DNA of 64,000 nt from Candidatus Omnitrophota bacterium (GCA_903944345.1 CAJARJ010000013.1:58672-122671), one strand, 5' to 3'; counted from the first letter of the stretch, positions 1 to 62,167 are shown. Program-made: numbers and translations. Notes: generated from the sequence alone by a model not told the origin.

Positions 1-3000
1 TGTGCGGCTTTAGTCTGCGAACGAGGCTTCGCTGAATCCGTAAACTTAAGCGGAACAGCGATCAAAGGGTTAACCCCCGATTCGGCAAAAGCATAATAAA
101 TACTGGCTACGGAAGCATAGGCATTGGGCGTCATCCAGTCATGCCCGGTTGGCTGGTTAGCAGCGATACGTCCATCTTTATAAACCGCATAAGGAGCAAC
201 CAGTCCGCCGTCTTTCTGTATATAGAATCCGCCAACTTCTTTCTTGAGAGCTTCATAACGCTTTTGATAATCGGACTTCTTTTCTCCGGTATGTTGTTCG
301 CTCATCCATTTGTACAACACGGCCATTTGCGACGACCACTCGGGAGATATAATGCCGCGGCTCCTGGATTCGGGGGAAAAACTAAATCCCACGAGTATCG
401 TCCCGTCATAAACTCCGGTCAACTTTTCAGTTGTGGCAATCATGGCATCGAGTTCGGCTAAACGATCTTCCCTGGTAGCGCCAAGGCTTGTGTCAGCCAG
501 CATACGCTCTTTCGGTGCCCACGCCGTAGTATCAGGGGCAAATTTACTCAAAGGATCCCTCGTCCACTGGCCATCCTTAAAAACAGCTCCTCTACGAAAA
601 ACGTGATTCTCACGATCATACATTTCAGTGATAAGCCAGTTATAACTTCTGTCCGCGGCCTGACCGTAAGCTTTTTCTTTGGTCACCTGATACAAATTAT
701 CCCAGGCATATAATGAACTTTCATTAGCTTCTGTAGATTTAAGATTCCAGAAAAAATGCTTATCCCCGTTATCCCGGTACTGCCCCTTGGGGCCAAAACG
801 CACGCCACCGTCAGCATCCTGGAGCTTCCGTAAAAAATCTGCGCGTTCCCTGGAAAATTGTAGAAAAACAGGATCCTTGGTTGCAACATAATTATGAATA
901 CCTGCCAACCCGCCCCAGGCATTGTCGCCCGCTGTTACCCTAAACTCCCAGGAACTCTCCCATTTAGGCTGTCCGGGAAGATTCTCAAAATGGCTGGTAC
1001 GAACATTATTGATAATACCGTTGGCCGGCGAATAATTGGCATCCATAGTTACAGGAGCCGCCTCTGTCGGGGAAGCTGTCCTGTTGGCGGCATATGTCCG
1101 CATGATGCGCAGTGCCTCGGGGCTGCCCGCACCAACAATAGCTCGTAAAAACTGATCATAGGCCTGCGTACCTAACTTTTTGATCGGATCCTCGTCACCA
1201 ATATGGCTGGCTACAAGCCCCGTTTGAGGATTTGCTTGAGCACGAAACAAAGCATCATACTTTTGGGCAATCGCTATGGGGACAACGGCAGGGCGGACAG
1301 CAGCTGATCCGGTCAGAGCTCCGGGAGCAACCGTTACCGCAGAGACCTTGCTTTGCCGGCCAGCAGCTTGTGATTCACTAGGAACAAGTCTCCCGGTCGG
1401 AACATTCTCTTGCTTTGAATCAAAGATAATCAACCTTTTGTCCCCTTCCAGTTTGGATGGATCAACCGGTACAGCTTTGACCCGTCCTTCAATCATCAGC
1501 CTGACCAGACCGGATTCAGGCTTGATCCCGGCGGCTTTTTGCTCGGGGCTCAAAACATTGCCCTTGGCATAAATCTCAAATTTTCCCGTGGCACGGTTCT
1601 CGATCTCGAATCCACCGTCAAATCTGGTCTGTAAAACAACAAGCCGGTGCTCGAGATTACGAATGCCCGGTTCAAAAAGATCGGTCACCCGGCCATTGCT
1701 GACTCTGACCATCATGTCGCCCGTAACAACGATCGGTTCGCTGTCCCCTTTAATGGTAACCTTCTGACCAACGATCCCCGAACCGGCAAATCTGGCCGGA
1801 CGAAAATCAGCAGCCGACTCCAGCGATGTCAGCTTTCCTGTCGCAACATTGATGGCCACCCCTTCATTCTCGATATACCCCGCATACCGGACAGCCAGCT
1901 CACGCTCTTTGGCTTTCAGCTGGTCATACCAGAGTTTCTTGGTCCTTGAGGAAGGATCAAAAACCCCGAATTGCTTGCCGGACGAAGGAAGCTGGATAAG
2001 AACAGTGTCATCAATCTGATAGGTTATGCCTTCTATAGTAACTGAAATCCCAGTTTCGGTCTTTTGTGCGCCTGCTGTTTTGCGTAACAATTCAAATTCA
2101 GCCGGCTTGAGCCACTTGACCACCTTGAACTGGCTGGTACCGCTGACGGGCTCGCTCAGAGTACCGTCAAAATGCCTGACCCAGCCCGACATGGCCTCGC
2201 CCTCGGCTTCAATATCCTGAAGCAGTTGTCCGGCCTGGAACATGTAGCCGTTAACCTTGGTGGCAGCAAAGCCCTTGACCCTTAAATCTTCTGATAAAGG
2301 ACGACCGTCGAAATCCACCTTGTCCGCGCGTTCCGCCAGGGTTTCAGGCTTGCCCAGCATATTGCGCCAGGAACGCAGGGTCATTCTTAACTGGTCACCG
2401 GTATAATCAACAATAATTGCTCCGGCTTCCTGTAAAAGCGATTTTGGAGAATGCCGGCGTGTTTGTTCCGGCGTTAACGGCTTGCCAATTTCTTTTGGCA
2501 AATACTGTCCCCCGGCAGGAAGCTGCTGAAGGAGATTAAGTTCACGCGGATCTGTTATAACGCGAATCATTTCACCACTGATCGGGTGACGCAGTCCGCC
2601 GTAAACCTTCTTGCCGTCAGAACCCTTGCCTTCAAGCACCGCCATTTCATTGGCCAGAGATTCGCGCGAAACCAAAGGCTTTATAACAACTGTCTTCAGT
2701 CCGGCCTGGGCACCTGCTTCGGCTTTAATAAATCCGTGTGTCAGAAAAGCCGGGGAAGCAAAAACCTCACGCGCCTGAACCTGACCATCTCCCTGAAGGC
2801 GCAGCATATAACCTTTGACTGTTCCACGGTAATGCACCTTGTCCTCGCCCTGCGCGGTGGGTTGAACATCGTAACCGTTCTCATCATTGCGGACATATTT
2901 TGTATTGGGATCTGTAATTTCAAAAAGTTCGATAAAAACCACATCATCGCGCGCCGCCGGTTTATTGGCCGCGGAATATTCAAAAGCCATTTGATACAAA

Positions 3001-6000: not shown

Positions 6001-7217
6001 GCATCCTTTTTTTGCTGCGCTGCAGAAGCGGAAGCCGGAGCGGCTATCATAGCTCCGTCTGTTGTCTGCAAACCGACACTGGTAACCGAGATTTCGGCGG
6101 CCGCAGGCGCAACAACCGCCATCGCTTCAGCAAAAGAAACCGAAGGATTGATGATATTCGGGCCAATCGCCGTAATACCACCCGAGAAATACTTCCTGGG
6201 CAGCAGCTCACGCGACCCCTCGTCCCATTCCTCTTTGACGTAATTAAAAACTCCGGCCTTGTACGCTTCCATGTACTGCCGGTAAATGCGCTCCTTGGAC
6301 TGAGGGTCATTGAGTTCAATGCCCCCGACCTTGCCAGTGTCCGCGTAAACCTGGCCAAGCAGGCTGTTCATAAGATTCTGCTTGAACCATGTGGCCATGA
6401 TCATGGAGTTGTACGCCTGACGCAACGCCGCAAAATGCGCCCCGCTATTGACCTCCTGCTCGATCACAGGAATAACAACATCACGCATAACATCAGAGGC
6501 CATCTGGGAGGAAGGCTCGGCAACCCCGGCATCCGCAATGCCAGCCGACTGCTTGACCGCTGAATCCCGGCCTGCCAAAAAGTCCTGTTCAAGCATCACC
6601 TTCAGGTGGCTCTTGACCAGAATAGCCGTATCATTCTTTTGATAAATATCTGCCTTGTCGGCCGTGATCCATACCTTGTTGAAAGTATCGACCGGAATAT
6701 CTGTTGTCCCAAAACGGGCATAAGCGCGGGCATAAATACGAGACCAGAACTCTTTTCCGGGAGAACTCTCCGGGAAAAGCAGCGAAGAAGTAAACTGCTT
6801 GAGCAGATAATCCTGCTCAAGCAAATCGCGTCCCATTTCGGTCATGGAAAAATTGTCAGGGATAATGCGCTCGGACTCTCTGGGAGACAGGTTAACCCAC
6901 ATATCCTGATTGGGAATAACCAGCGAAGCCATGAAATACTTGATCAGTTTGCGATACTCCAGCTCGCGTTCCTGCTGCTCAAGCTTGCGGTCGCCATCTT
7001 TCATGATGAAATAAAGATTAAACGGATTTTTGACATCCACGCGCATCCCCATCATGACGGGAGGATTTAAAGCGGGACTGGTGGCAAGCATTTGCCCTGG
7101 AGCAGGGGTAAGGGTTTGGGCATAACCGGATTGGGAAGGAATACTGCTCAGATAGGCAACCAGCACAAAAATCGCGATCATCTTGAAACAACGGCTATGC
7201 AGTAATCTCTGAAACAT
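1..7217 (-). CDS. Giant secreted protein (>2,400 aa, 3' end beyond the window); founding member P1 of the paralogous family; ATG at 7217, signal-peptide-like N-terminus, conserved N-domain, then a long charged coiled-coil region
   Basis: I translated the reverse strand from the ATG at 7217 by hand: MFQRLLHSRCFKMIAIFVLVAYLSS..GMRVDVKNPFNLYF..WVNLSPRESERIIPDNF..FGTTDIPVDTFNKVWITADKADIY..NSMIMATWFK..PRKYFSGG. This frame has no stop anywhere in the window and no minus-frame-2 ORF appears in the track. Codons around 3600-3800 read ..EIAEELADVVETLAQRKTQAAEMRREQEQTRKARQAYEQEQARSKARIAEEKKK.., a coiled coil. Confidence 0.75.
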   Translation of the reverse strand, partial: MFQRLLHSRCFKMIAIFVLVAYLSSIPSQSGYAQTLTPAPGQMLATSPALNPPVMMGMRVDVKNPFNLYFIMKDGDRKLEQQERELEYRKLIKYFMASLVIPNQDMWVNLSPRESERIIPDNFSMTEMGRDLLEQDYLLKQFTSSLLFPESSPGKEFWSRIYARAYARFGTTDIPVDTFNKVWITADKADIYQKNDTAILVKSHLKVMLEQDFLAGRDSAVKQSAGIADAGVAEPSSQMASDVMRDVVIPVIEQEVNSGAHFAALRQAYNSMIMATWFKQNLMNSLLGQVYADTGKVGGIELNDPQSKERIYRQYMEAYKAGVFNYVKEEWDEGSRELLPRKYFSGGITAIGPNIINPSVSFAEAMAVVAPAAAEISVTSVGLQTTDGAMIAAPASASAAQQKKDAALVSAKRQSVQNRLQRVRQLIANTRKQLADARQKRLARGKAETMWFEWAPGDYFSGIRGAQPLDIAARLVLQMQAYVPVRTEGAFSTVDDVRAWHDESYGEAKNIVQAHRNAARWLVKTDLPFRGLAAMAAKGVLTPKQRAALQVELLKARVTFKDLANEAVIARLNRSALGRDVKKAILRELYDFRTTSDRFSTAASPKTWSPYFMSLRLMGAYALTEFSRIWQSRGKSPRTSVFGWRKWVLSLMLALQVSSAVAPAAAAIAQQAPAPTPVAEVQTIPPSAGPDMLHLPDVLAVAGGQPTSGQPVSPSDQTKINLVDRFNSSGVLTAASGELVRARDLGIGVINTAQGLRNLSDLDARVLLREYSSSDADMKDMVVRTVLYQGKKMVVAGYTDSTLAQGVATSRELGARAASSVSSAVAAGASTVAPAAETQAVAVIDRFSGEVREQAVDFKDGTWRQLGANDPLTKRELQVAGASKVFRAGTWIRLEPVANLNMELPRGIRPANGKVITAYIESAGSAPSVKPATDARDVEEARDASRRTLLPVSANRSTLDEEAEYFRSIESMDSLNDLEATVSAMYFSIQYAETAGLDNPWIRTFGDPKSGKVSSAAFPVQITYTLARDTVARGRMSKESADFFRQVLEPIYKQFFKHTGRIGSPGYNPDFDYGGTGGFDPVKFGPAYKKFAKELIRLHLKDAGGDERRALAAWRGVSEQGDPGYFKRFDTARDAVRKAPGRMEIAEELADVVETLAQRKTQAAEMRREQEQTRKARQAYEQEQARSKARIAEEKKKTFTQQHMFLTQEMRRLQALGGVGFGAQDLPASLTWVMDYNYPLASVPLGTPSGDPSLGFMLNINHPFKSVAEATQIVKGFGGTVNGAPISDISTVLGPLRLLDIGMELYNYGLMHPNRNQTKLYHTDKDPVQGIINTLTINWTDVEAANEENQMQRKTVFSVGLYDSLRAIPGFFDRITFKGVTPLWQLMGNVNLRFPFENAGEQMQYGLYQMAFEYSAANKPAARDDVVFIELFEITDPNTKYVRNDENGYDVQPTAQGEDKVHYRGTVKGYMLRLQGDGQVQAREVFASPAFLTHGFIKAEAGAQAGLKTVVIKPLVSRESLANEMAVLEGKGSDGKKVYGGLRHPISGEMIRVITDPRELNLLQQLPAGGQYLPKEIGKPLTPEQTRRHSPKSLLQEAGAIIVDYTGDQLRMTLRSWRNMLGKPETLAERADKVDFDGRPLSEDLRVKGFAATKVNGYMFQAGQLLQDIEAEGEAMSGWVRHFDGTLSEPVSGTSQFKVVKWLKPAEFELLRKTAGAQKTETGISVTIEGITYQIDDTVLIQLPSSGKQFGVFDPSSRTKKLWYDQLKAKERELAVRYAGYIENEGVAINVATGKLTSLESAADFRPARFAGSGIVGQKVTIKGDSEPIVVTGDMMVRVSNGRVTDLFEPGIRNLEHRLVVLQTRFDGGFEIENRATGKFEIYAKGNVLSPEQKAAGIKPESGLVRLMIEGRVKAVPVDPSKLEGDKRLIIFDSKQENVPTGRLVPSESQAAGRQSKVSAVTVAPGALTGSAAVRPAVVPIAIAQKYDALFRAQANPQTGLVASHIGDEDPIKKLGTQAYDQFLRAIVGAGSPEALRIMRTYAANRTASPTEAAPVTMDANYSPANGIINNVRTSHFENLPGQPKWESSWEFRVTAGDNAWGGLAGIHNYVATKDPVFLQFSRERADFLRKLQDADGGVRFGPKGQYRDNGDKHFFWNLKSTEANESSLYAWDNLYQVTKEKAYGQAADRSYNWLITEMYDRENHVFRRGAVFKDGQWTRDPLSKFAPDTTAWAPKERMLADTSLGATREDRLAELDAMIATTEKLTGVYDGTILVGFSFSPESRSRGIISPEWSSQMAVLYKWMSEQHTGEKKSDYQKRYEALKKEVGGFYIQKDGGLVAPYAVYKDGRIAANQPTGHDWMTPNAYASVASIYYAFAESGVNPLIAVPLKFTDSAKPRSQTKAA

Positions 7218-7409
7218 AAGTCACATCCCGGTAGAGATTGTCAGATTCCGGTTAAAGACCAGCGTCTTCTCTTATAAACAGCTATATTGCGAAGTTTTAT
7301 CCTTTACATGTATATACTATAAGTGAGATAAAAGCAAGTCCCGGAAATTAATACATGTCAAAAGAATGTAACGAATGCTTTATTCTGAAGAATTAAGGGG
7401 ACAAAAAGA

Positions 7410-24391: not shown

Positions 24392-26092
24392 TCAAGGCTG
24401 GTGCTGCGGCGGCTCCACAAAATTCTGCAACGGAAGAATCTGCAGGAGCAAAGGAAAATAACCGGCTGATTCCTGATACGCCTCCGGAAGAAAATCCGAC
24501 GATGTGTTGAAGTCCTCGGCCGCACGGACAATATCCAGCCTGCGTTCGATACCGGCCAGATCCACTCCGCCTTTATCCATACGCCAGTTACGCGACACCA
24601 GCTGTAACAAACGCTCGAGATCGGCCGTCATTTCACTTGTGCTCTGATAACGCTGCTGCGGTTTTTCGGCCAGAGCCTTTCTGACCATTGCTCTTATCCT
24701 CAGAAACACATCCTCCCGGTCTCTGGTCTCAACCCGCGTGTCAAGCCACAGCCGGAAAACAGGAACAGAACCCCTCTGCCCCTCCTGCAACGGACTCATG
24801 GCAGTCTGCATAAGCAGCATTCCCAAAGCATAAATATCGCGCACCGCGTTCCAGCGCTCCGGAACCTTAACAGCCCCCGGACTATCCTCCGGCGGGACAT
24901 ACATAGGCACTCCGGTAACCAGGTCTTCGGATGTGCGCAGAGAACCCAGACCGACCGCCATATCCAGATCAATAACCCGCACTCGTCCCCGGCTGTCGAT
25001 CATGATATTGTCCGGCTTGATATCACAAGACACATACCCTGCCTGGTGAACTTCCCCGACCGCGATAAGAAGTGCACGCAACAGTCTCAGCCGCGCTGTC
25101 AGCCCCATATCAGCATGGGCGTAGAAGTATTCCCCGAAAGTCTGGCCATCGATATATTCCGTCACCAGATAACTGCGTTCCTGATCATGAAAGTATTCAA
25201 CAAACCTGACAACCGCCCCGTCACGGCCGGAAGCGGAATATTTCATGGTAATATCCTTTAAAATCCGGGCTTCATTGGCTTGAAGCTGTGCAAGGCTCGA
25301 CTGACGATCAGACTTTGTGGATGGGGTTTTAAGAATATATTTCTTGCCGTCTTTCTCGGCCAGATAAACTGCAAACCGCCCCTTGTCCTGCAACAGGCGC
25401 AAAACGGCATAACCTGCCACCACCGGCTGACCGGACTGATGTGTGGCCATGGAGCTGTCCGCCCCCTGTTCAGGCATAGCCTTGATCGGCTGCAGAATAA
25501 CATCTAGCACGGCCGCATCATTCACCAAACGTTCCAATTCAGACTGATCCGGGGCGCCCTCTTTTCGCAAGGCCAACTGAGCCATATCAAAATTCATTCC
25601 CCCTGAGAAATACCTGCGCACAACAACCTCGCCGGTTGGAATATCCCGCTCCTCGCGGAGCAGGTCGAACGCCCCCTGCTCAAAAGTCCGGGCGTACTGC
25701 TGCCAGATGCGCTCGGCCAAACCGGGATCATCAATAGCAATACCAGTCACCTTCCCGCGATCCACATATTCCTGATGCAAACGCCCGGTTGTCATGCGTT
25801 GTTTGTACCATGCCGCCAGAATCAAAGCAGAATAAATCCGGCGTAACGGGATAAATTCTGCCCCTGTATCCACTCGTTCCTGAAGAAGAGGAATCACCTG
25901 CGTGAGCATAACCTCTTGCGCCATCCCGGCGGCCCCTCCCTCCAGCATAACTTTCAGTCGCGCCGAACGCACAAGAACCATACCAGATGTTTTATCTTCA
26001 TAAACTCCTGCGCTCTGCGGAACAATCCAGACACGCTGCCAGACGTCAAGGGGGGATATCAGTTGTTCCATACATGGCCGCCGCGCGTGCAT
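24392..26092 (-). CDS. Family-paralog::Ser/Thr protein kinase fusion, downstream reading frame (rest of the conserved N-domain, kinase domain, C-terminal GGVDL module)
   Basis: ..RVWIVPQSAGVYEDK..LKVMLE..MLTQVIPLLQERVDTGAEF..LAAWYKQ..RRYFSGG then a kinase domain (YILKTPS, CDIKPDNIMID, DLDMAVG, VPPE), ending ..DKGGVDLAGIERRLDIV.. Confidence 0.75.
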   Translation of the reverse strand: MHARRPCMEQLISPLDVWQRVWIVPQSAGVYEDKTSGMVLVRSARLKVMLEGGAAGMAQEVMLTQVIPLLQERVDTGAEFIPLRRIYSALILAAWYKQRMTTGRLHQEYVDRGKVTGIAIDDPGLAERIWQQYARTFEQGAFDLLREERDIPTGEVVVRRYFSGGMNFDMAQLALRKEGAPDQSELERLVNDAAVLDVILQPIKAMPEQGADSSMATHQSGQPVVAGYAVLRLLQDKGRFAVYLAEKDGKKYILKTPSTKSDRQSSLAQLQANEARILKDITMKYSASGRDGAVVRFVEYFHDQERSYLVTEYIDGQTFGEYFYAHADMGLTARLRLLRALLIAVGEVHQAGYVSCDIKPDNIMIDSRGRVRVIDLDMAVGLGSLRTSEDLVTGVPMYVPPEDSPGAVKVPERWNAVRDIYALGMLLMQTAMSPLQEGQRGSVPVFRLWLDTRVETRDREDVFLRIRAMVRKALAEKPQQRYQSTSEMTADLERLLQLVSRNWRMDKGGVDLAGIERRLDIVRAAEDFNTSSDFLPEAYQESAGYFPLLLQILPLQNFVEPPQHQP

Positions 26093-26540: not shown

Positions 26541-26694
26541 TTTCCTGAACAAATTACAGGATCAGTTTGGGAATGTTGCATAATATGTCAGTATAGTGAA
26601 TAGTATGGCAAGTATTGATGAAAAAACACCATCTGTCAAGTTGCTCTATCAGAGGAGATTTGTGCGGGAGGAAAAATCACGTTTGCAAAAGAAA

Positions 26695-42715: not shown

Positions 42716-42717
42716 GC

Positions 42718-46656: not shown

Positions 46657-48681
46657 ATGATCCAGCGCTTATATCACTCAAGATGGTTTAAAAAAACAAC
46701 TTGCGCCGTCCTGGCGACATTTGTCACGCTCATCCCGGCACAATCAGGCTACACACAGGTGGTTGCCCCCATGCCGGCACCGGGCCAGATGACGCGAGTA
46801 ACCGGAAAATTTGAGCCTGCCCGCATGGCAGGAATGCGCATAGATCCCCGGAACCCGTTCAATTTCTATTTTCTCATAAACAAAGGCGAACAGTCTTTAA
46901 CACTTGAGGCCCAAAAGGCTGAATACAACAAACTCATAAAATATTTTCTGGCTTCCCTGACCATTCCGAACCGGGATATGTGGGTTAACCTGTCTCCGTC
47001 GGAGTCCGACCGCATAATCCCGGATAACTTTGCCCGGACTGAAACAGGGCACGCCCTTCTGGCACAAGATTATCTTTTAAAACAATTCACGTCTTCATTA
47101 ATGCACCCGGAAGACCCTGTCGGCAAAGAATTCTGGACAAAGATCTACGCGAAAGCGTTCGAAAAATTCGGCACAACCGAGATTCCGATAGATACCTTCA
47201 ACAAAGTGTGGATCACCGCCGACAGGGCGGATATCTATCAAAAAGACGATACCGCTCTTCTGGTCGACAGCCATCTGAAAGTGATGCTGCAGCAGGATTT
47301 CATGGCCATCAGACAGAACAAGGAACAATACGCAGTCGCGGCCGACACCCTGGCGCAAGAGAGCGACGGGGCACGCCAAATGACATCGGATCTTGTGCGG
47401 GAAGTGATCATTCCGGTCATGGAAAACGAGATAAACACCGGCAGCAACTTTGCCCAGGTTCGCCAGATATACAATTCCATGATCCTGGCAACCTGGTACA
47501 AGAAAACTCTCCGGAAAAGCCTGCTCGGACAGATCTACGCCGACAAAAGCAAAGCAGCCGGGATTGAAACAAGTGACCCGCAAGCCAGAGAGAAAATTTA
47601 TCAACAGTATCTCGAAGCGTTCCAACTGGGCGCCTTCAATTATATAAAAAATGACACAAATCCCTCAACACAGGAAACATTACCCAGAAAATATTTTTCG
47701 GGAGGAGTTGCCCTCTTGCCAGACGCAGCCATGATCAAGGTCGTCGATGAACGTTCAGCCAGAAATCAATTTCTTGGTCTGAGGAATACTGTAGAAGTTG
47801 TTACCACCCTGTTCACCAAAACCAGCCGACTCTTCCCTCTTTTACTGCTCCCCGCCAACAGCTTGACTTACGCATCAACAACTCTCCCGTCTACCGAACC
47901 GCCTGACACAGATCTCATCGCGACAACCCTCGGAATGATCCATTCACAGACCGCAGAATTCATGAATCTGCTGAACAACGAAGCAACCGGCTGGGCGCTG
48001 CTGGGAATATTCCTCGTTTCCGTGCCCCTGATCCTGTACCATGCCCACAAACTCAGGATCAAGATCGCACTTGCTGTCCAGATTATCGATACCAGGACAG
48101 ACTTGTTGTCCAGGGAAGACCTTTTAGCAATACTAAAAGAGGTATACCGGTCAGATGCAACCACAAGCTCGGATCTGGACATTCAGTTTATTACCAATAG
48201 CATGCAAAAGCAGAATATCGATATTCAAACCGGTCTCGCGGCATTAATATCGTTCTTCAGCCTGGATCAGGAACACCGCTTGCTTGAGGTCAATGCAACT
48301 GCCTACATAGCCAACATAAAAACAAACGATCTCACATCGAAAAGAAACAGATTGAATCCTCTCCGTCACGCGGCTGAGATTTCCGACATTGAAAGAAGAA
48401 TACACCAGAGCGAACAATCTTATATGCAACTGGAAAAAGCCATAGACGCATTAACACCCCCCGATTCTGCCGCCCTGCAGGCGCCTACCGGCGGTATTGA
48501 TCTGGATGAAAAATATCTGACCATGAATATCCGTGTGGACGGAAAAGGAATGCCTTTGCCGGTGTCCATGCAGGATCCGGCGATGCTTGATATCGACGGG
48601 CTCTCACCGTTCATTCGTGAGATTGAACCTGTGACCCCCTTGAATATGCCGGTATTCCTGGAACTGACCCAAAGCCCGTAA
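46657..48681 (+). CDS. Family paralog P2 (674 aa): signal peptide, conserved N-domain, hydrophobic segment, C-terminal GGIDL module
   Basis: ..GMRIDPRNPFNFYF..WVNLSPSESDRIIPDNF..LLAQDYLLKQ..FGTTEIPIDTFNKVWITADRADIY..LKVMLQQD..REVIIPVMENEIN..NSMILATWYK..PRKYFSGG..; transmembrane-like GWALLGIFLVSVPLILY; ends ..APTGGIDLDEKY..PLPV.. Confidence 0.8.
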   Translation: MIQRLYHSRWFKKTTCAVLATFVTLIPAQSGYTQVVAPMPAPGQMTRVTGKFEPARMAGMRIDPRNPFNFYFLINKGEQSLTLEAQKAEYNKLIKYFLASLTIPNRDMWVNLSPSESDRIIPDNFARTETGHALLAQDYLLKQFTSSLMHPEDPVGKEFWTKIYAKAFEKFGTTEIPIDTFNKVWITADRADIYQKDDTALLVDSHLKVMLQQDFMAIRQNKEQYAVAADTLAQESDGARQMTSDLVREVIIPVMENEINTGSNFAQVRQIYNSMILATWYKKTLRKSLLGQIYADKSKAAGIETSDPQAREKIYQQYLEAFQLGAFNYIKNDTNPSTQETLPRKYFSGGVALLPDAAMIKVVDERSARNQFLGLRNTVEVVTTLFTKTSRLFPLLLLPANSLTYASTTLPSTEPPDTDLIATTLGMIHSQTAEFMNLLNNEATGWALLGIFLVSVPLILYHAHKLRIKIALAVQIIDTRTDLLSREDLLAILKEVYRSDATTSSDLDIQFITNSMQKQNIDIQTGLAALISFFSLDQEHRLLEVNATAYIANIKTNDLTSKRNRLNPLRHAAEISDIERRIHQSEQSYMQLEKAIDALTPPDSAALQAPTGGIDLDEKYLTMNIRVDGKGMPLPVSMQDPAMLDIDGLSPFIREIEPVTPLNMPVFLELTQSP

Positions 48682-48787
48682 TTATCCGTTCCCCCTAACA
48701 ACCCTGAGATAGTTAGGTAAACATTGTAAGGTTACCGACAATTAATGTACTAAATCTGAAATAAGATGAAAACACAGGAAAAAAAAC

Positions 48788-50977
48788 ATGTTCAAACGTT
48801 TGTGTGCAATCCTACTAATCGTGTCCGTTCTTGTCACTTCCACAATTCCCTCGGCGGCTTTGGCCCAGATGTCGTCTTTACCCGTCCCCGGATCCATGCT
48901 GGGGAAAACCCCGGATTTCTCTCCTCTGATAATGCAGGGAGTTCGCGTCCATCCCGATAATGCTCTCCTGTTTGATTTTATTATCGATTCCGGAGACTCA
49001 GGACTCGCCACTGACAGTGCCGCTTTCAGACAGGAAGCCGGAAAACTCGTCAATTATTTTCTGGCGTCGCTCACTATAAAAGAAGAAGACCTTTGGGTTA
49101 ACCTTTCCCCGTTTGAACACAACCGCATCCTCTCCCCCGATCTGGAAAAAACAGAACTGGGCAGTGACATGCTGGCACAAGACTACATCCTGAAACAATT
49201 AAGCGCTTCACTGATCTATCCGGAAGAAAATCTGGGAGAAACGTTCTGGAACCGGGTCTACGCCCGTGCCCGGGAAGAATTCGGCACCACAAACATACCG
49301 GTCGACACCTTCCACAAAATATGGATCAAGGCAGACAAGGTCCGGGTTATCGAACACGAGGGGGCCGCCTATGTGGCCGGAGCACACCTGAAAGTCATGC
49401 TGGAACAGGACTATCTGGCCATAAGCCGCACACCTTCCGACGGCGAAGGCAGCGATATTGCCCGTGATATCCTGCGCGAAGTCATTGTTCCTGAAATAGA
49501 AAAAGAAGTCAACCGGGGCACCCATTTTGCCCCGCTCAGGCAGATGTTCAATTCCATGATCCTTGCCACATGGTACAAGCTGGCACTCAAAGACGCCCTG
49601 CTCAACCGGATTTACAGCGACCGCGGAAAAACCGGCGGCGTACTGGCAGACGATCCGGCAGAAGCAGAGAAAATCTATGAACGCTATCTGGAAGCTTACA
49701 AAAAAGGCGTTTTCAACTATATCAAGGAAACCCCCGGAGCGAATGAGGAACCTACTTTGCCAAGAAAATATTTCTCGGGTGGAGTGGACGGGAACCTGGC
49801 TAAAATACTGGAACGTGTGGATGCCGCTGCTGCTCCGACAGAACTGACAGCTCCTGGCAACAGTCGCCGCTCCGCCGTTACGGTGCGGCTGGAAACAGTT
49901 GCCCAACCGGTCGAAGACTCCGTTCCTGCAAAAGAAACCCAACAACGCATAGAAAACTTCCTGGCGGGACACTCCGAAACGGCAACAGATGCGTCCATGC
50001 TGTCTGATTTAAACGAACTGATCAAAACTATCCGCGAACTTCCGGTCGACATGTTCGAAAAACGTTTCGAGGAACTCTCCCTGTTGACCAGTAAAAAACA
50101 GTTGCGCGTCCTGCGTGATTTGTTCGACAAAATAAGAGGCCTGGACGAGCCTGGCGTTGAGCATCTGATCTCCCGGATAAAAGCCCTGGGTCTCAGGCAG
50201 GCCGAAATGGATGAACTGGTTGAAAATCTCGAAAAAACTGTCTGGATGCGAAAAGAAGCTTCCGGCCCGGCTGTCTCCACCGATCGTTACATCACCCTTC
50301 TGAAAAAAAAGATTGCCCTGAGCCTGTCATTTATAGTTCTGGGATTTATATCCGGGAGCTTTGCCGTTATCGACATGCTAGACAACAGAACAGAATGGAC
50401 TTCTCTGCTGGCCATTTTTGCCTCGTACATTTTTTTTATACTGGCCAGGCATCTGGACAAATATATTAAAAGCATGAACGAGCAACCGGCCAAACGTACG
50501 CTGGGCCAGAACGATCTTGTGAATCTGGCGGAACAGTTTCTTGTCCTTTATCAGAATGGCGAAGCGATACCGGGTGCAACCGAAGAGCTCGCGCGGGACG
50601 CCGTCAATTACGAAATCTATTTCTGGCTGCTGCACGAAAGATACATTGCGCCCGATGATCTGCCTGCTGCTGTTCGTGGTGTCAGCCAACAGCTGTCGCT
50701 AACACCATTAAAAGGCCCTGGCAGTTACTGGAGCATTACCGTCAATCACCCTGACCCTCTGGACAGTAACACCGACCAGTCCCAGGCCGCCAAGGGTGGT
50801 ATCGACCTGAATGCCAAAACCATGAGCCTGGATATTTCCAGAACAGCGGCAAGCGCCGCGATCAGAATGGATCAATCTGCCTTCGACGGGTTTGAGGACA
50901 ACCTGTTTTCGGGACTGCAGGGGATTATTATCAGGATCGTTCCGGTTGAAAACCCGGCCGTATTTCTGGGCGTCTGA
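48788..50977 (+). CDS. Family paralog P3 (729 aa): signal peptide, conserved N-domain, two hydrophobic segments, C-terminal GGIDLN module
   Basis: ..GVRVHPDNALLFDF..WVNLSPFEHNRILSPDL..LAQDYILKQ..FGTTNIPVDTFHKIWIKADK..LKVMLEQD..REVIVPEIEKEVN..NSMILATWYK..PRKYFSGG..; ends ..AAKGGIDLNAKT..IVPVENPAVFLGV. Confidence 0.8.
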   Translation: MFKRLCAILLIVSVLVTSTIPSAALAQMSSLPVPGSMLGKTPDFSPLIMQGVRVHPDNALLFDFIIDSGDSGLATDSAAFRQEAGKLVNYFLASLTIKEEDLWVNLSPFEHNRILSPDLEKTELGSDMLAQDYILKQLSASLIYPEENLGETFWNRVYARAREEFGTTNIPVDTFHKIWIKADKVRVIEHEGAAYVAGAHLKVMLEQDYLAISRTPSDGEGSDIARDILREVIVPEIEKEVNRGTHFAPLRQMFNSMILATWYKLALKDALLNRIYSDRGKTGGVLADDPAEAEKIYERYLEAYKKGVFNYIKETPGANEEPTLPRKYFSGGVDGNLAKILERVDAAAAPTELTAPGNSRRSAVTVRLETVAQPVEDSVPAKETQQRIENFLAGHSETATDASMLSDLNELIKTIRELPVDMFEKRFEELSLLTSKKQLRVLRDLFDKIRGLDEPGVEHLISRIKALGLRQAEMDELVENLEKTVWMRKEASGPAVSTDRYITLLKKKIALSLSFIVLGFISGSFAVIDMLDNRTEWTSLLAIFASYIFFILARHLDKYIKSMNEQPAKRTLGQNDLVNLAEQFLVLYQNGEAIPGATEELARDAVNYEIYFWLLHERYIAPDDLPAAVRGVSQQLSLTPLKGPGSYWSITVNHPDPLDSNTDQSQAAKGGIDLNAKTMSLDISRTAASAAIRMDQSAFDGFEDNLFSGLQGIIIRIVPVENPAVFLGV

Positions 50978-55144: not shown

Positions 55145-58100
55145 TTAAAACCTCACAAAATCCGTTAGCGCGGCCTGCGCGGTAACACCAACAATAACCG
55201 GAACAATCCCCGTTGCATGCTGACGCAGCTGCTGCATGGTTTCTTCACTCAGCTCAAAGACTGAAGCCGATGCCAGATCATACCCCGATCCAGCCGCTCT
55301 TTCAATCAGAAGCCTGATATTATCCGGATTAAGATCGATACCACCCGGAGTTAATGCTGACTGGGCGTGATCGGCTCCTACAACAACCTGTCGCGCCCGG
55401 GCAAGCGCCTCATTATTGTTCCTGTACCCTCTGAGATACTCCTTGAACTCAGGCGGCATACTGTTGCTGTTGGCTGACTGCTTGAAATCGGCGATCGGCC
55501 CGGCGGCAACAACAACCAGACGACGGCGGCCATAGGCGCGCTCAAGAACAGCCCGTAAAGCCGGATGATCAGAAATTTCATCGGAATGCCCTGAAAAAAA
55601 ACTGTCCAGACGCGCACCAAAGGCTTCCGCAGTCCCGTCATCCTGAAAAACCCACAAATCTTTCTCCCTGAGCTTGACCATAAGCCCGTCAGTCACAAGC
55701 CGGTTCAATATTCCGGTCCCTTCATAGCCCAACTCGTTAAGGGTGGCCGAGGACACCATCCCCGAAAGCACAACATAAACACTTATCGACTGCCCCTTGC
55801 TCTGAAGGCGTTCAATGTGCGGCAAGCCATTCTGGTTGGAATCAATCTTGCCTTCCAGAAAATCATTGATCAACCCCTCAATCACGCGCCGCTCGCGCGG
55901 TTGCTGCAAATAGTCACCATTCACCCATCCTCCGTCGACAACCGCGACATCATATCCTTTGATCCGCAAAGGCTGCTCCTGTTTTAAATACCGCTCGGGC
56001 GTAACACCCCAGAGCTTCCAGTAACCCTGCAGAACACTTTGCTCAATCTGCATCTGCCTGCTCATATGCGGTAGAAGTTTGTCGTACCCTTCCCGTGCAA
56101 GCCGACCATTCTTGACTATGGTTCGTGTTTCGGAGAGAGCATTAAAATAAGCTTCGCCATTGCCCTCGCTATCCAGAAAACGCCGCACAGACTCCGGCGG
56201 AGCTTGCGCCGAACGGGCCAACGTACTGACCACATCAGCATAATTCCCCTCGTACTGCAATCCGGAAGCAAGAATACCGTCAAGTCCCTCGGAGATGAGA
56301 ACCCCTTCCTCAATGGCAGCAGACTCCTCGTCCTGCCAGGGAATTTCGACGAAAGCCAGAAAACGCGAACCCATGCTACCCTCGGGCCGCCAACGATCAA
56401 TATCCTCAAAGGTCAGACCCTGCGCTTTGGAGGCAAGAAATACCCGTTCTGGCGTTACATTGACTCCACTCCGGGCAAGACTGATAACCGCGTCCAGCAG
56501 ACGTGTATCCTCGGGCTCCAGCTGCAGAATCTCTGCCTCGCCCAGAATAAAAGCCAGCTTGTCTGCAGGCGGTTCCCCGTTAGAAAACCCCGAAGATTCC
56601 CGCAAAAACCTGGTGACCCAGGTATTCATCCACAATCCAAAGCGCTCTCTGAGTGCCGCTTGCAATATTTTACGATCAACCTGTGCATCGGTAATATCTG
56701 TAAAAGCCAAATCATTCTTGTACTGACGCACCACCTTGCGCAAAACATCTTTAAGGCTGGTACCTGGACGGGCATGCTTTATCATGACCTCGTAATGACG
56801 AATCATGCGCTCAATCAACGGGCGCTGCAAAGGAGACGGGGCTACCGGGCGAGAAACCTCTATGGTTTTCTTGATCTTCTCGGTCCTGGCATAGGACTGC
56901 AGAAACAAATCCACATTATAGTACCCGGCTTCAAACAAAAGATCCGCAACCCGTCTTTCCACATCCACAAATTGCTTCTTATGCCGCGGCTGGGGAATAT
57001 CCTGCTCCCGGATATTGGCCAAAACCTGTAACAAGTCTTGCCACCGTGAACTTCTGATAATATCCGAGAGTTCCTCCTCAAGCTGTCCTCTTCTGAAAGG
57101 ATTCGGAATCCAGGAATCTTCTCCCAGGTCTTCGATAAATATAAGATCTTTCAACGGGAGCGGTTCAGCAACAAATGCGGCGAACAAACGCAGAAACAAC
57201 AGGCCCCTGCGGGCTTCCTGAATAATCTGCTGATTTTTTGATCTCCCGCCTTCGGCCAGAATCTCGAGCAATTTATTACCGACTGCAGCCGTCTTATCCT
57301 GCGCGCCAAACGCCTCCTGGAACTTTAAGAGCAGTCCGGAAGAAAGATCCTCTTTCCTGAAAACTTTCAGCATTTTCTCCAACCCCAGCCACTCTTCCAT
57401 ATTGACTTTAGAAAATAAATGCCCCATTCTCATAACAAGTGCCTGACGGAATTCCACAACATCCAGATCCTTGAGAAATTCGACTACCAGCCCGGCGAAT
57501 TCAAAAGACTTTCCCTTTACAATCGCGTTTTCAATCTTTTCAAGCTGCGGACGCAACTTCTTGATCTGCCCCTTGTGCTTGGGAAGAAATATGGCCGAGT
57601 CCCGTGTAAAGTCTGCAACATTATAATGAAGCCCCCCTTGCATCTTGATCCCCTGCGCGGCGTCGGTCTGAACCTGCAGATCAGAAGAGACCCTGTAATA
57701 ATCCCGCGTGTCCGCAGGAAGGTCCAAATCCATCGCGGCGTCGCCATTGAGAATCACTCCGCCGGACATATATTTGCGGGGGATAGTGTCGCCATTCCAG
57801 GGGTCAGTTTCTTCCCGAATCAGGTTAAAAACACCCTGCCTGAAACTGTCCATATAAGCTGTCCAGACCGTTTCGGCAGAAACCCTCCCGAAGCTGTCCA
57901 TCCCCTGCGTTTTACGGCTGTCAGAGTACACCCGCGCCACAACAGAATCATACAGCTTTTTCTTGTACCACGTGGCCAATACCAGACAGCGATAAATCTC
58001 TCTCACCCTGGCAAAACGCGGGCTTTCATTAACCTCGCGCTCAAGAGCGGGTATAACCACTTCGCGCATGGCACGTAAAGCCGCGGTACGCGCCGGATTG

Positions 58101-58900
58101 TTATATCCCGGACCAATTTCAGCCGAAAACTGCGGATAAGCCGCCGAAGCCCTGTAATCGTCCTCAAGCAAAACCTTCAGACGAGTTTCCGTCACAACTG
58201 CAGCAGCACCCGGCGCGGCGACGTCCCGGGAAAAGTTTTCAAAAATACGCGCGCTGTCAGAAGTTATCCAGACCTTGTTGAAGGTATCAACCGGCAAATC
58301 GGTTGTGCCAAACTTTTCGTGCAAATCAGCATAGACACCGGCCCAAAAAGCTTTCCCCTGGCTGTCGTCAGGATGAACCAACTCGGCGGCCACGCGCTTG
58401 AGCAAATAATCCATAACCAGCAAGTCCTGCCCCATGCCTGTTCGCGCGAGGTCCGGGGTCGTCACCCGGTCTTTTTCATAGGGGGAAAGATTGATCCACA
58501 AATCCTGGGGAGGAATAACCAGCGAAGAAAGAAAGTACCTGATCTGACGAAGGGAGTCCTGGCTGTTATCAATCTCGGAACTCCCCCAGGCAGCATTGCG
58601 CTCGAAAATGAAATCCATCCGTAAAGGATTGCGGGGGTCAACCCTGACACCCTTCATGATCACGCCGGAGGGGGCTGTAATATCTTCAAGCAGAGGATCG
58701 CCGGGCAACGCAAGTGGAAGAACAGATTGTGCGCTAACAGGAACTACGGAGCCCAAAAAAAGGATGGCGCACAAAAATAACCGGAAGAAAATTCCGAAAG
58801 GTGAAAGCATCTGGCCAGAACAATTTAGAAGTGACATGGTTTTTGACAAATCCGGGTTAAAACTACAGGAAAGTATAATATATTTTAAGCTTTCCTGCAC
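55145..58900 (-). CDS. Family paralog P4 (about 1,230-1,251 aa): signal peptide, conserved N-domain, long unique central region, C-terminal GGIDLN module
   Basis: ..GVRVDPRNPLRMDF..WINLSPYEKDRVTTPDL..LLVMDYLLKR..FGTTDLPVDTFNKVWITSD..LKVLLEDD..REVVIPALEREVN..LVLATWYK..PRKYMSGG..; ends ..LTPGGIDLNPDN..IVPVIVGV... The track ORF starts at a GTG at 58900; ATGs at 58837 and 58810 are alternatives (the signal peptide follows 58810). Confidence 0.8.
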   Translation of the reverse strand: MQESLKYIILSCSFNPDLSKTMSLLNCSGQMLSPFGIFFRLFLCAILFLGSVVPVSAQSVLPLALPGDPLLEDITAPSGVIMKGVRVDPRNPLRMDFIFERNAAWGSSEIDNSQDSLRQIRYFLSSLVIPPQDLWINLSPYEKDRVTTPDLARTGMGQDLLVMDYLLKRVAAELVHPDDSQGKAFWAGVYADLHEKFGTTDLPVDTFNKVWITSDSARIFENFSRDVAAPGAAAVVTETRLKVLLEDDYRASAAYPQFSAEIGPGYNNPARTAALRAMREVVIPALEREVNESPRFARVREIYRCLVLATWYKKKLYDSVVARVYSDSRKTQGMDSFGRVSAETVWTAYMDSFRQGVFNLIREETDPWNGDTIPRKYMSGGVILNGDAAMDLDLPADTRDYYRVSSDLQVQTDAAQGIKMQGGLHYNVADFTRDSAIFLPKHKGQIKKLRPQLEKIENAIVKGKSFEFAGLVVEFLKDLDVVEFRQALVMRMGHLFSKVNMEEWLGLEKMLKVFRKEDLSSGLLLKFQEAFGAQDKTAAVGNKLLEILAEGGRSKNQQIIQEARRGLLFLRLFAAFVAEPLPLKDLIFIEDLGEDSWIPNPFRRGQLEEELSDIIRSSRWQDLLQVLANIREQDIPQPRHKKQFVDVERRVADLLFEAGYYNVDLFLQSYARTEKIKKTIEVSRPVAPSPLQRPLIERMIRHYEVMIKHARPGTSLKDVLRKVVRQYKNDLAFTDITDAQVDRKILQAALRERFGLWMNTWVTRFLRESSGFSNGEPPADKLAFILGEAEILQLEPEDTRLLDAVISLARSGVNVTPERVFLASKAQGLTFEDIDRWRPEGSMGSRFLAFVEIPWQDEESAAIEEGVLISEGLDGILASGLQYEGNYADVVSTLARSAQAPPESVRRFLDSEGNGEAYFNALSETRTIVKNGRLAREGYDKLLPHMSRQMQIEQSVLQGYWKLWGVTPERYLKQEQPLRIKGYDVAVVDGGWVNGDYLQQPRERRVIEGLINDFLEGKIDSNQNGLPHIERLQSKGQSISVYVVLSGMVSSATLNELGYEGTGILNRLVTDGLMVKLREKDLWVFQDDGTAEAFGARLDSFFSGHSDEISDHPALRAVLERAYGRRRLVVVAAGPIADFKQSANSNSMPPEFKEYLRGYRNNNEALARARQVVVGADHAQSALTPGGIDLNPDNIRLLIERAAGSGYDLASASVFELSEETMQQLRQHATGIVPVIVGVTAQAALTDFVRF

Positions 58901-58919
58901 ATTATCCGGATCAGATCGA

Positions 58920-59713: not shown

Positions 59714-59797
59714 CAATTAACACAACTGCCCGCTGGGGCAAGGAGAATAAAGATTCGCTTTACAACTCAAGACTGATTAACAAAAGGAGAAACAGGC

Positions 59798-62167
59798 ATG
59801 CGCTATGTATTATCCAGTCAATCCGATCAGTTGAGGACAAGAAAGCCCGGCACACACATCATCAACGCGGTCATGACCGCCATATTCCTCTTTCAAAGCT
59901 GTGTTGCACCCAACGTATGGGCGCAGTCCCTTCAGATGCCATCATCAGTCCCCTCTACAAAACCAGCGTATATCCCCGCGAGCCTGCAAGGTCTGGTTCT
60001 TGATTACAAAGAACCCTTTAAACTCAATTTTCTCGTTAGCCCCGGGCAATCCCCTCTTTCTCCTGTCGAAAAGAAAGAAGAATACGCCCGCCTCGTAAGA
60101 TATTTCTTGGCCGCCCTTGCCATCCCCGACAACGACCAGTGGGTCAACCTTTCACCTTTTGAAAAAGAACGCATTATTTCCGGGAACTTCGGCCGCACGG
60201 AAATGGGCCGCGACCTGCTGCGGCAGGACTATCAACTCAAACAATTATCCTCCAGCCTCACTCATCCCGACTCTGCAACAGGGAAAATATTCTGGGAACA
60301 TCTGTATGCCGAATTTTTGCGCACATTCGGAACAACCCAAATCCCCGCCGAGGCCTTGAACAAGGTGTGGATCATGCCGGACAAGGCCGTAATCCATGAA
60401 AACAGCCGAACCCGTTCGGTACACATTCTGGAACAACGATTAAAAATTGTCAGCGATGTGGATCATGCCGCGCTTCGCGGAGGACAACCGGACAGATCTC
60501 CTCTTGAGGATATTTACCAGGATGCCCTGCGCAAAACCATCCTGCCACTAATCGAAAAAGAAATTAATGAAAGCCGCGACTTCGCCATGCTCCGGCAGAT
60601 TTACAGCAGCATGTTACTGGCCGCATGGTTCAAGCGGGCCCTCAAGGATTCGGTCCTCACCAATCTTTACGGCGACAAATCGAAAACCACAGGCATCGAT
60701 ACAAATCCGCTTGTCAACCAGGCCATCTACCGTGATTACGTTGACATGTTCCGCAAGGGAGTCTTTGATTTCATCCGGGACGATCTGGACACAGCAACAG
60801 GAGACATCCTCCCCCGCAGGTACTTCTCGGGCGGGGCTGTTTCTGTCGGATCAGCTTTCGAGGATACAGTGACGGTCCTGACCGATCAGTCGCAAAGAAT
60901 TGCAGATCCCAACGAGGAACTGGTTACAGCAAGCCTGGTCTCTCCCCAACAAATCCCCCGACGCCTGGCCCCAACAGATATCCCCGTCGTTCTAATACTG
61001 CTGTCTCTCTGGCAGGGACATACCAATGCCCCCAATAAACAGGTTGTAATTCCTTTCTCGCCGATATACGCACAGTTCTTGCCTGAACAAAACGCTATCC
61101 CGGGGACACGTCTTCTGGACGACTCCCCGGCAGCAGGTCTTGAAATTGTTGATCGTCACGATTTGATCTCCTGGCTCGTTGGCCTGAAGAATTTCAAACG
61201 GGCCAAGAAACTGGCCCAGATAGCCTTGCGCCAAAGACATGAACTCTTGGCCCTGGCTCTTTCCTTACCTCTCTCTGAAACATTGTCAGACGACCAACAA
61301 ACCCGTGTCCTGACGTTTTCAGTCAATCACCGGGATTACACCGTCGAGATCATCAGTCACAACAAACCTTTCACATATAATGGTACTGATTACGATCCGC
61401 TGCCCGGAAGCATGATAAAAATCACAAAAGACAGAGGGCATGAAATTCTCCTGGAAATCCTGAAGGGCGAAACAACACCCGCGCAATGGAAGACAGACGT
61501 TGTTCCTTTCCTGCTGGCCCGGGTTTTTCCAGGAATTGAAGTTTCCGGATTCGATCAACCCGCCGAAACATTCGAATTGGCAGCGTCCAAGGACGACATG
61601 ACCAGCGACGACAATACTCCTTCCTTAAACGTAACTGCAAATACACTGGAACAAATTTTTTCTTTACCAGCGTCGAAAACAGAACTCGTTTCAAGAAAAG
61701 ATGCCCTGGAACTGGCTTTTATGGTGGAAACACCGGAGGGCAAAGCTCTCCTGACGGCCCTGCCTCTTTACGCCCCTGAAGATAAAGACCGCACATTTGT
61801 CGTCGGTTTACAGGTCACTGTCTCCACACTCACAGAAACCGGGCTTCACGAAATACTTTTTGCCAATACACACGATCTTTCCCTTATCAGCCGTCTGAAC
61901 AGAGAAAATCCGTCGTGGCGTAATTTTGCTGTTTTCGCAAGCGCGCTGGTTGCCGGCAATCCCGACACAAACAGCAGTCCTGGCAGCCTCGCAGCCGCCG
62001 CTCCTGGTGGTGTTGACTTCAGCGAAGCAGCACTGGATTTGTTGATCAAACGAGATGGCAGCGGGATTCCTCTGCCTGTGGGTCAGCAAAACCTGACGAA
62101 TATAAGAATCAACGGACTGGTGCCGGTCATTATGAACATCCGTCCGGCAGTCGAAATTAATTGGTAA
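59798..62167 (+). CDS. Family paralog P5 (789 aa): conserved N-domain, unique central region, C-terminal GGVDF module
   Basis: ..WVNLSPFEKERIISGNF..LLRQDYQLKQ..FGTTQIPAEALNKVWIMPDKAVI..KTILPLIEKEIN..SSMLLAAWFK..PRRYFSGG..; ends ..AAPGGVDFSEAALDLLIKRDGSGIPLPV..VPVIMNIRPAVEINW; ATG with a GGAG ribosome-binding site. Confidence 0.8.
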   Translation: MRYVLSSQSDQLRTRKPGTHIINAVMTAIFLFQSCVAPNVWAQSLQMPSSVPSTKPAYIPASLQGLVLDYKEPFKLNFLVSPGQSPLSPVEKKEEYARLVRYFLAALAIPDNDQWVNLSPFEKERIISGNFGRTEMGRDLLRQDYQLKQLSSSLTHPDSATGKIFWEHLYAEFLRTFGTTQIPAEALNKVWIMPDKAVIHENSRTRSVHILEQRLKIVSDVDHAALRGGQPDRSPLEDIYQDALRKTILPLIEKEINESRDFAMLRQIYSSMLLAAWFKRALKDSVLTNLYGDKSKTTGIDTNPLVNQAIYRDYVDMFRKGVFDFIRDDLDTATGDILPRRYFSGGAVSVGSAFEDTVTVLTDQSQRIADPNEELVTASLVSPQQIPRRLAPTDIPVVLILLSLWQGHTNAPNKQVVIPFSPIYAQFLPEQNAIPGTRLLDDSPAAGLEIVDRHDLISWLVGLKNFKRAKKLAQIALRQRHELLALALSLPLSETLSDDQQTRVLTFSVNHRDYTVEIISHNKPFTYNGTDYDPLPGSMIKITKDRGHEILLEILKGETTPAQWKTDVVPFLLARVFPGIEVSGFDQPAETFELAASKDDMTSDDNTPSLNVTANTLEQIFSLPASKTELVSRKDALELAFMVETPEGKALLTALPLYAPEDKDRTFVVGLQVTVSTLTETGLHEILFANTHDLSLISRLNRENPSWRNFAVFASALVAGNPDTNSSPGSLAAAAPGGVDFSEAALDLLIKRDGSGIPLPVGQQNLTNIRINGLVPVIMNIRPAVEINW

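Follow-up and report, generated by a model that had tools for sequence, protein, structure and literature searches.

Conserved N- and C-terminal modules enclose variable cargo in a large Omnitrophota protein family without detectable relatives

A phylum-wide protein family of Candidatus Omnitrophota is built from a conserved N-terminal domain (N-domain, or head) and a short C-terminal module (C-module, or tail) that enclose a variable insert. Six of its genes lie in the window, as we call the whole stretch of 64,000 nucleotides (nt) analysed here (GCA_903944345.1, CAJARJ010000013.1:58672-122671; positions are counted from its first letter). The fixed order of signal peptide, N-domain, variable insert and C-module is near-universal in the family, and no relatives are detectable in the named families or PDB sequences searched. 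The reading towards which we lean, holding it at slightly less than an even chance, is that these proteins are Sec-exported carriers whose head and tail clasp together and target the variable cargo between them. Omnitrophota are widespread, uncultured and mostly ultra-small bacteria that are believed to rely on other cells or to hunt them. The largest proteins predicted in any organism are theirs, and the function and export of these giants are unexplained.

Two conserved modules around a variable insert

An earlier note on the window, written from its sequence, had described six paralogous genes for large secreted proteins with a common N-terminal domain. The list of open reading frames (ORFs), their translations and a scan with hidden Markov models (HMMs) confirm all six genes with their coordinates and strands. 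Searching the six-frame translation of the window with an N-domain HMM returned exactly six copies and no others, at 6042-7220 (minus strand), 25526-26537 (minus, matched in two reading frames), 46657-47775 (plus), 48767-49921 (plus), 57665-58783 (minus) and 59840-60916 (plus). The domain E-values of the five intact copies range from 1e-125 to 1e-164, and the observation of six copies is far beyond chance. All motif blocks that had been listed, from G[MV]R[IV]xPxNP to PRKYFSGG, are visible in a six-way alignment. The length of about 330 amino acids (aa) given for the domain is right (about 330-350 aa) if the signal peptide and an LPxPG stretch are included, but the core that is conserved in the window copies opens with G[MV]R[IV], closes with PRKYFSGG and measures 282-298 aa. 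As had been proposed, each window protein is headed by a Sec-type signal peptide, in which basic residues and a hydrophobic core lead to A-x-A and then Q (P3 has ALA↓Q here, P4 VSA↓Q).

The window members, which we call P1 to P5 and the kinase fusion, span 674 to more than 2,405 aa. P2 (46657..48681, plus strand; 674 aa) consists of the signal peptide, an N-domain (core at 46831..47706, HMM E 9e-164), one strong transmembrane-like helix (aa 443-461) and a C-module (48490..48678, E 5.6e-24); an identical protein is found in public assemblies (P0288/P0395). Together with P3 (48788..50977, plus; 729 aa), which begins 107 nt after it, P2 forms the tandem pair seen earlier. In P3, the signal peptide and N-domain (core at 48938..49783, E 6.1e-151) are followed by two transmembrane-like helices (aa 509-556) and the C-module (50795..50974, E 3.3e-19). 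P5 (59798..62167, plus; 789 aa) likewise has a signal peptide and carries about 390 aa of unnamed cargo between N-domain (core at 59990..60835, E 6.8e-130) and C-module (62006..62164, E 9.1e-25). About 800 aa of unnamed cargo lie behind the signal peptide and N-domain (core at 57758..58651, E 2.5e-125) of P4 (55145..58900, minus; up to 1251 aa), with the C-module at 55148..55345 (E 3.4e-13); the GTG at 58900, previously taken as its start, is less likely than an ATG at 58837 or 58810. The kinase fusion (24392..26552, minus), now divided into two overlapping ORFs, joins signal peptide, N-domain, a Ser/Thr protein kinase and a C-module beginning GGVDL (24395..24571, E 1.9e-12). Finally, P1 (1..7217, minus) is present as its 5' part of more than 2405 codons, which runs off the window and encodes a signal peptide, the N-domain (core GMRVD…PRKYFSGG at 6177..7049, E 2.5e-160) and more than 2000 aa of cargo free of named domains in Pfam and NCBIfam. 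The C-terminus of P1 lies outside the window, hence its C-module is not visible.

Downstream of the N-domain the six proteins had been thought to be unrelated. Their middle regions are indeed not conserved, but P2, P3, P4, P5 and the kinase fusion share the C-terminal module, and a bipartite architecture of N-domain and C-module replaces that of one N-terminal module with an unrelated remainder. In the window proteins the C-module comprises 53-66 aa (typically about 55), opens with GG[IV]D[LF] and contains G[LFIY]xP[VFL]I..I.P; its C-terminal end is proline-rich and moderately hydrophobic and has no basic tail. Across the family the signature reads GGIDL…G[FL]xPVIIxIxP. Local HMMs detect the module in 213 of 374 database members, once per protein and with its end at a median distance of 6 aa from the C-terminus. 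In the members that reach 1,000 aa or more, a subset less likely to consist of contig-end fragments, the count rises to 135 of 142 (95%), and a strict GGIDL pattern stands 40-90 aa from the end in 53 of the 75 complete ORFs of genome loci. A database search with the C-module profile returned 20 short fragments, the word index used for it favouring short proteins.

The insert between the two modules ranges from 15 to 4,520 aa (median 704), and its position is fixed, always between the SGG that ends the N-domain and the GGIDL that opens the tail. P0045 (438 aa; found in an ENA metagenome on 5 contigs) is the minimal member, made up of a signal peptide, N-domain, 15-aa linker and C-module without any cargo. 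By simple sequence rules, 260 of 267 complete members have a hydrophobic N-terminal 12-mer, which is preceded by K or R in 253 and followed by a small-x-small motif in 241.

The family is large. Compared with 1.84 billion representative proteins, the N-domain profile matched 8,400 clusters (50% identity) at E<=1e-3 and still 6,808 at E<=1e-30; in all of the 150 matches listed, from proteins 420-4,969 aa long, the aligned region opens no later than about residue 65. When one genome per species was scanned, at least 560 loci came to light, with several per metagenome-assembled genome (MAG) and with tandem arrays of three family genes in two of the loci (L012 and L080). Matches to the P2 domain are exclusively 'hypothetical proteins', 47-70% identical to it, and the named ones come from MAGs of Candidatus Omnitrophota/Omnitrophica; apart from a few records with other labels, which are probably mis-binned or mislabelled, the restriction to this lineage suspected earlier is borne out. 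Of the proposed lineage-specific expansion, the restriction to one phylum stands, but the expansion is old and phylum-wide and not a recent event in this genome: identity among the six window N-domains is only 34-58%, and the nearer relatives of each are found in other genomes (70% for P2, 63% for P1), which marks them as old paralogs and not as products of recent local expansion. The window genes themselves are recovered identically in several independent public assemblies. A viral origin was considered and is unlikely, given that only 3 of 2.9 million viral contigs in IMG/VR contain the domain. Many family members in the databases are labelled 'partial'. Short-read contigs of the window's species from other samples (L082, L083) end about 380 nt into P3, inside the N-domain. 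Paralogous N-domains appear to fragment assemblies, and copy numbers in MAGs are therefore probably underestimated.

Comparison with known families and secretion systems

The N-domain, which the earlier note could not name, matches no known family. In the six window proteins and P0045, neither N-domain nor C-module has a Pfam-A or NCBIfam match at E<=0.1, and none of these proteins has a PADLOC match at E<=0.01; the only nameable domain in the six is the Pkinase of the kinase fusion. PDB sequences gave 0 matches at E<=10, with the single P2 domain as well as with a 74-sequence profile. An AlphaFold2 (AF2) model of the P2 N-domain (mf56391d5c212), built on the 74-sequence alignment, reaches a mean predicted local distance difference test score (pLDDT) of 78.7 and a predicted template modelling score (pTM) of 0.70. 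It runs from an N-terminal beta-hairpin through long helices, a long two-stranded hairpin and further long helices to a final hairpin, and a Foldseek comparison of it with predicted viral structures (BFVD) returned nothing at E<=0.001. Neither module is described in the literature searched in full text, which included both preprints on giant Omnitrophota proteins considered below. The family sequences are public as hypothetical proteins, with no name, model, structure or description found for either module. Nothing was found in favour of the counter-explanation raised earlier, membership in a well-characterised type of multigene family (peptidases or glycoside hydrolases, for example), and we regard it as hardly credible.

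The conservation of the N-domain suggests a further possibility, namely that the domain itself is the working part, an enzyme or a binder of glycan, lipid or peptidoglycan of the envelope or a host surface, with the inserts as accessories and no role in targeting. N-domains are about 50% identical across the phylum and retain about 30 invariant residues, many of them polar, charged or aromatic, as would be expected of an active or sugar-binding site (N56, S58, E61, D83, K87, K128, D159, E203, R214 and K227, besides four W and four Y). Likewise, the cargo-less P0045 shows that head and tail are viable alone. We consider this explanation unlikely, though it is one to be taken seriously.

Several known systems combine conserved and variable parts in a comparable way. 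At the N-terminus a parallel is offered by the TpsA proteins of type Vb secretion (FHA, CdiA, ShlA, HMW1), which also have a Sec signal peptide, a conserved N-domain of about 250-300 aa and a long variable sequence, occur as several paralogs per genome, and use their N-domain for recognition by the transporter and not for the end function. In contrast to TpsA, the family N-domain has no Haemagg_act/TPS match in Pfam, its predicted fold is mixed alpha/beta with long helices and not a beta-helix with NPNL/NPNGI motifs, no TpsB-like gene neighbours the family genes in the window or in 80 other loci, and an additional C-terminal module is obligatory. That C-terminal element recalls the cargo of type IX secretion in Bacteroidota, where dispersed, unlinked genes encode Sec signal peptides, arbitrary domains and a short C-terminal module, and dozens of cargoes use one machine encoded elsewhere. 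However, the five window proteins with a C-module match neither Por_Secre_tail (Pfam) nor TIGR04183/TIGR04131 (NCBIfam), the module is only about 55 aa long, unlike the 7-stranded, Ig-like C-terminal domain (CTD) of type IX cargo, and it is found in another phylum and together with an N-domain. MARTX toxins resemble the family in that conserved N- and C-terminal regions bracket modular, strain-variable enzymatic effectors, but they lack a Sec signal peptide, are exported by type I secretion and contain glycine-rich RTX repeats and a cysteine-protease processing domain. Neither the repeats nor the protease domain was detected in the window proteins with Pfam and NCBIfam, and Sec-type signal peptides are found in nearly all complete members (260 of 267). 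As the family could be assigned to none of TpsA, type IX cargo or MARTX, what we propose is that it works like these systems, not that it belongs to them. Sortase- or exosortase-type signals (LPXTG, PEP-CTERM, GlyGly-CTERM), in which a short motif precedes a transmembrane helix and a basic tail at the C-terminal extremity, have no NCBIfam match in the window proteins, nor do autotransporter barrels of type Va/Vc (Autotransporter, YadA_anchor) in Pfam, for which the C-module would in any case be short.

Within the phylum, the comparison of interest is with the giant proteins of 10,000-147,000 aa, the 'Archaeovorins', described in two preprints (West-Roberts et al. 2023, bioRxiv 10.1101/2023.11.21.568195; 2026 preprint 10.64898/2026.06.07.730766). 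These carry signal peptides and, in one of the two preprints, an N-terminal region 'lacking identifiable domains' (10.1101/2023.11.21.568195; 10.64898/2026.06.07.730766), and the 2026 preprint reports mostly membrane-associated architectures with similar domain sets for long Omnitrophota proteins (10.64898/2026.06.07.730766). The giants share with our family methyltransferases, HATPase_c, starch synthase/GT5, receiver domains, HEAT repeats and multi-enzyme metabolic sets, a likeness of cargo that rests on family members from other genomes, the kinase being all that can be named in the window. Differences are equally apparent. Family members measure 438-4,969 aa among those listed, below the more than 30,000 aa of the Archaeovorin type; the giants have many transmembrane helices, whereas 170 of 213 family members have no internal transmembrane-like segment; and the family genes of the window do not adjoin loci resembling type II/IV secretion.

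Cargo and the carrier reading

Apart from occasional patches, members do not resemble one another in the sequence of their inserts, and the cargo of P2-P5 found no match in the other family members compared. In P4 it gave nothing significant in PDB or Pfam, the only hit being an aminopeptidase P with E 0.27 in the PDB search. An unnamed cargo domain of about 410 aa in P1 (residues ~1977-2386, window ~1-1300), with no Pfam match, is 46% identical to residues 440-863 of a family member from another genome (L006:5311-9819). In members from other genomes Pfam identifies signalling domains (HATPase_c, Response_reg, PP2C, FHA), methyltransferases, starch-synthase-type (GT5) and GT2 glycosyltransferases, GH26, HEAT repeats and WD40 propellers, together with metabolic enzymes such as enoyl-CoA hydratase (ECH), SDR, AMP-binding enzymes, GHMP kinase and UDP-glucose dehydrogenase. 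A chain of 1,892 aa (L044:3551-9226) combines a UDPGP-like domain with a complete phosphoglycerate kinase (PGK, E 2.7e-107), and one of 3,026 aa (L049:448-9525) contains malate synthase, class-I fructose-bisphosphate aldolase (2.1e-78) and isocitrate lyase (ICL, 1.7e-79). In an ORF of more than 3,695 aa that runs off its locus edge (L008:9809-20893), the cargo consists of multiple WD40 beta-propellers; a member of similar size (L001) has no Pfam match over 3,687 aa. Judged from these domain matches, the cargo is overwhelmingly of cytoplasmic type and would work with ATP, CoA or NAD. The earlier suggestion of effector- or toxin-like or surface proteins stays conjectural; the cargo is made up mostly of metabolic and signalling enzymes and not of toxin domains.

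This cargo bears directly on a neutral scenario, in which an ancestral exported protein of about 400 aa had a loop tolerant of insertions and the inserts are fusion debris or assembly chimeras. The single insertion point, the range of 15 to 4,520 aa and the lack of conservation would fit, and paralogous N-domains do break short-read assemblies. Against this, the window genes are identical in several independent assemblies, ORFs of up to 4,969 aa remain open, PGK, ICL and aldolase score as full-length, well-conserved enzymes, and there are thousands of distinct members. The scenario is therefore very improbable.

A second alternative takes the nature of the cargo as its starting point. Here the proteins are not released; the hydrophobic N-terminus would send them to a membrane or to a membrane-bounded compartment inside the cell, where the enzymes would be scaffolded by head and tail as a tethered metabolon. 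Bacteria related to the Planctomycetes-Verrucomicrobia-Chlamydiae (PVC) group address internal compartments such as the anammoxosome with signal peptides. No compartment is known in Omnitrophota, which tells against the proposal. In its favour, the cargo requires ATP, CoA or NAD, the combination of malate synthase, aldolase and isocitrate lyase on one chain resembles pathway scaffolding, some members, P2 and P3 included, have transmembrane helices, and long Omnitrophota proteins are described as mostly membrane-associated (10.64898/2026.06.07.730766). On the other hand, 241 of 267 members have the small-x-small motif typical of signal-peptidase sites, about 80% (170/213) have no transmembrane-like segment between N-domain and C-module, and the usual topology would put a domain that follows a signal peptide outside the cytoplasm, where these cofactors are absent. 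We consider a metabolon of this kind improbable, if by no means far-fetched.

In the carrier reading, N-domain and C-module would be two halves of one conserved chassis, and this chassis, not the cargo, would be the common functional element. The GGIDL strand of the tail may pack against the WVNLSP segment of the head, with the cargo held between them as a loop. After Sec export and cleavage at A-x-A↓Q, the chassis would direct the insert to a shared destination outside the cytoplasm, much as a TPS domain, a type IX CTD or the conserved arms of MARTX do. Targeting could proceed through a phylum-conserved partner whose gene lies at another place in the genome. The 80 other loci, with 106 family ORFs, showed no conserved non-family neighbour, the analysis yielding just an antisense shadow ORF and generic response regulators; any partner must be encoded elsewhere and be common to all members. 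Such a partner is probably encoded by the bacterium itself, since the head keeps about 50% identity throughout the phylum, and surfaces that face a host usually diversify. The destination may be the cell surface or coat, or the cargo may be delivered onward to a host or prey cell. Because the enzyme cargo needs cofactors and would act where these exist, delivery into another cell by putatively host-dependent nanobacteria would fit best and would accord with the host-dependent or predatory life that has been proposed for them; this is the weakest step of the explanation.

Contact between head and tail finds some support in models and covariation. In the AF2 model of P0045, built from 61 full-length members (pTM 0.75), the tail strands GID and LQVKS have a pLDDT of about 92 and are flanked by linkers of low confidence. 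A two-residue strand, W104-V105 of the invariant WVNLSP, appears in this model and is absent from the model of the N-domain only, which is consistent with docking of the tail's first strand beside the WVNLSP segment. Mean-field direct coupling analysis (DCA) of 278 paired head and tail sequences (effective number ~251) gave 8 head-tail pairs scoring >=1.15, compared with 0-2 in six controls with permuted pairing, although this permutation also removes relatedness and the excess could reflect subfamily ancestry and not contact. Among the pairs are K101/L103, which directly precede WVNLSP, coupled with T372/R373, which directly follow GGIDL.

That last limit on the coupling signal is one of several points that weigh against the carrier reading. 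The support for docking from AF2 is indirect, and head-tail pairs are under-represented among the strongest couplings, with 13% of the top 60 as opposed to 27% of all pairs. In P2, one strong transmembrane helix followed by KLRIK lies between head and tail; a single helix would place the two on opposite sides of the membrane, and it argues against their contact at least in this protein. P2 is not alone in this respect, as exactly one transmembrane-like segment is predicted in 38 of 213 members compared with two in 3. The signal peptides were called by rules and not by a trained predictor. It is not obvious what metabolic enzymes with a signal peptide would do outside a cell, and no secretion machinery was found among the window genes, nor a partner beside the family genes in the 80 loci.

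The split kinase gene, the neighbourhood and the meaning of the family

The kinase fusion had been described as a single ORF. A +1 frameshift splits it into 26552..26046 and 26092..24392, at a run of six C (26050..26055 on the minus strand, C on the coding strand) that lies inside the N-domain. The 0-frame stop UGA follows directly after the run (CCC CCU UGA C), and both halves of the gene are otherwise intact. The loss of one C would restore DIPLDVWQRVWI, as would a +1 slip on CCC-CCC, and the frame obtained by removing one C reads ...GTTDIPLDVWQRVWI..., in agreement with the family consensus. An assembly error was considered and rejected: the same split product of 566 aa occurs on 14 independently assembled contigs from several samples, so the frameshift is real in the population. 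It could be a pseudogene, a +1 translational frameshift at CCC-CCC or a phase-variable tract; under translational frameshifting, a trans-frame peptide GTTDIPLDVWQR or GTTDIPPDVWQR would be expected. The cargo itself, a protein kinase domain at 24587..25411 (minus; Pkinase PF00069, E 5.6e-19, 69 bits against a cutoff of 31.7), has the features of a eukaryotic-like Ser/Thr kinase (catalytic Lys, HRD-type Asp and DFG-type Asp), with the catalytic motifs KYILK, CDIKPDN and IDLD intact in the translation.

An association with capsule or exopolysaccharide (EPS) genes had also been pointed out. An EPS export set does lie nearby, at 38927-43926 and 50988-52832 (minus), comprising Wzy_C-like, Wzz/GNVR tyrosine-kinase-like, Poly_export/SLBB, BBP2_2 beta-barrel and Polysacc_synt_2 dehydratase genes, but the association is not conserved in other loci and appears incidental. 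Apart from a few oddities, the remaining window genes are of housekeeping type (among them truA-like, asd, leuB-like, fabF, fabG, folB, folE, dus, ABC transporters, nadC, cyclophilin). The shadow ORF mentioned above, of about 150 aa, lies antisense inside the N-domain coding region in 22 of the loci L001-L080 and is not taken to be a gene.

Three further loci of the window deserve mention. At 36950-38896 (minus), a 648-aa ORF presents an unusual fusion of a penicillin-binding-protein transpeptidase (aa 54-261) with a complete serpin (aa 282-648, E 1.5e-106). At 32961-35197 (plus), a gene for a trypsin-like peptidase overlaps the start of a gene for a membrane protein with FHA and Yip1 domains, and the gene at 18094-19941 (minus) has a product of 615 aa that contains an intramembrane protease domain of the Rce1-like/CPBP type. 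The trypsin-like peptidase or the CPBP protease might conceivably process exported proteins. Every 4-kb bin has a negative GC skew (-0.05 to -0.15), and the minus strand carries most genes; there is no switch of skew, hence no origin or terminus, within the 64-kb window.

On the most cautious reading, the family is a large unnamed domain family with no PDB match, which is worth a database entry. If the chassis is a targeting device, it would represent a new route for placing bacterial enzymes outside the cytoplasm, and its HMMs could be used to catalogue the exported proteome of the phylum. Its parts are unrelated to any known carrier, and its type of cargo is unusual, with complete glycolytic and glyoxylate-shunt enzymes behind signal peptides. 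Small members of 438-700 aa can be expressed for work on structure and localisation, which is impossible with proteins of 40,000 aa, and P0045 is a natural candidate for structure determination and topology tests. A broader proposal, which we find possible but doubtful, is that the two modules serve for recognition and closure in an undescribed system of the whole phylum for protein export, display or delivery between cells, and that the same two modules also cap the giant proteins of 10,000-147,000 aa. If so, the members of 438-5,000 aa would be tractable miniatures of the giants, and the enzymes they carry would work outside the cytoplasm of the producer, on its coat or inside a host or prey cell.

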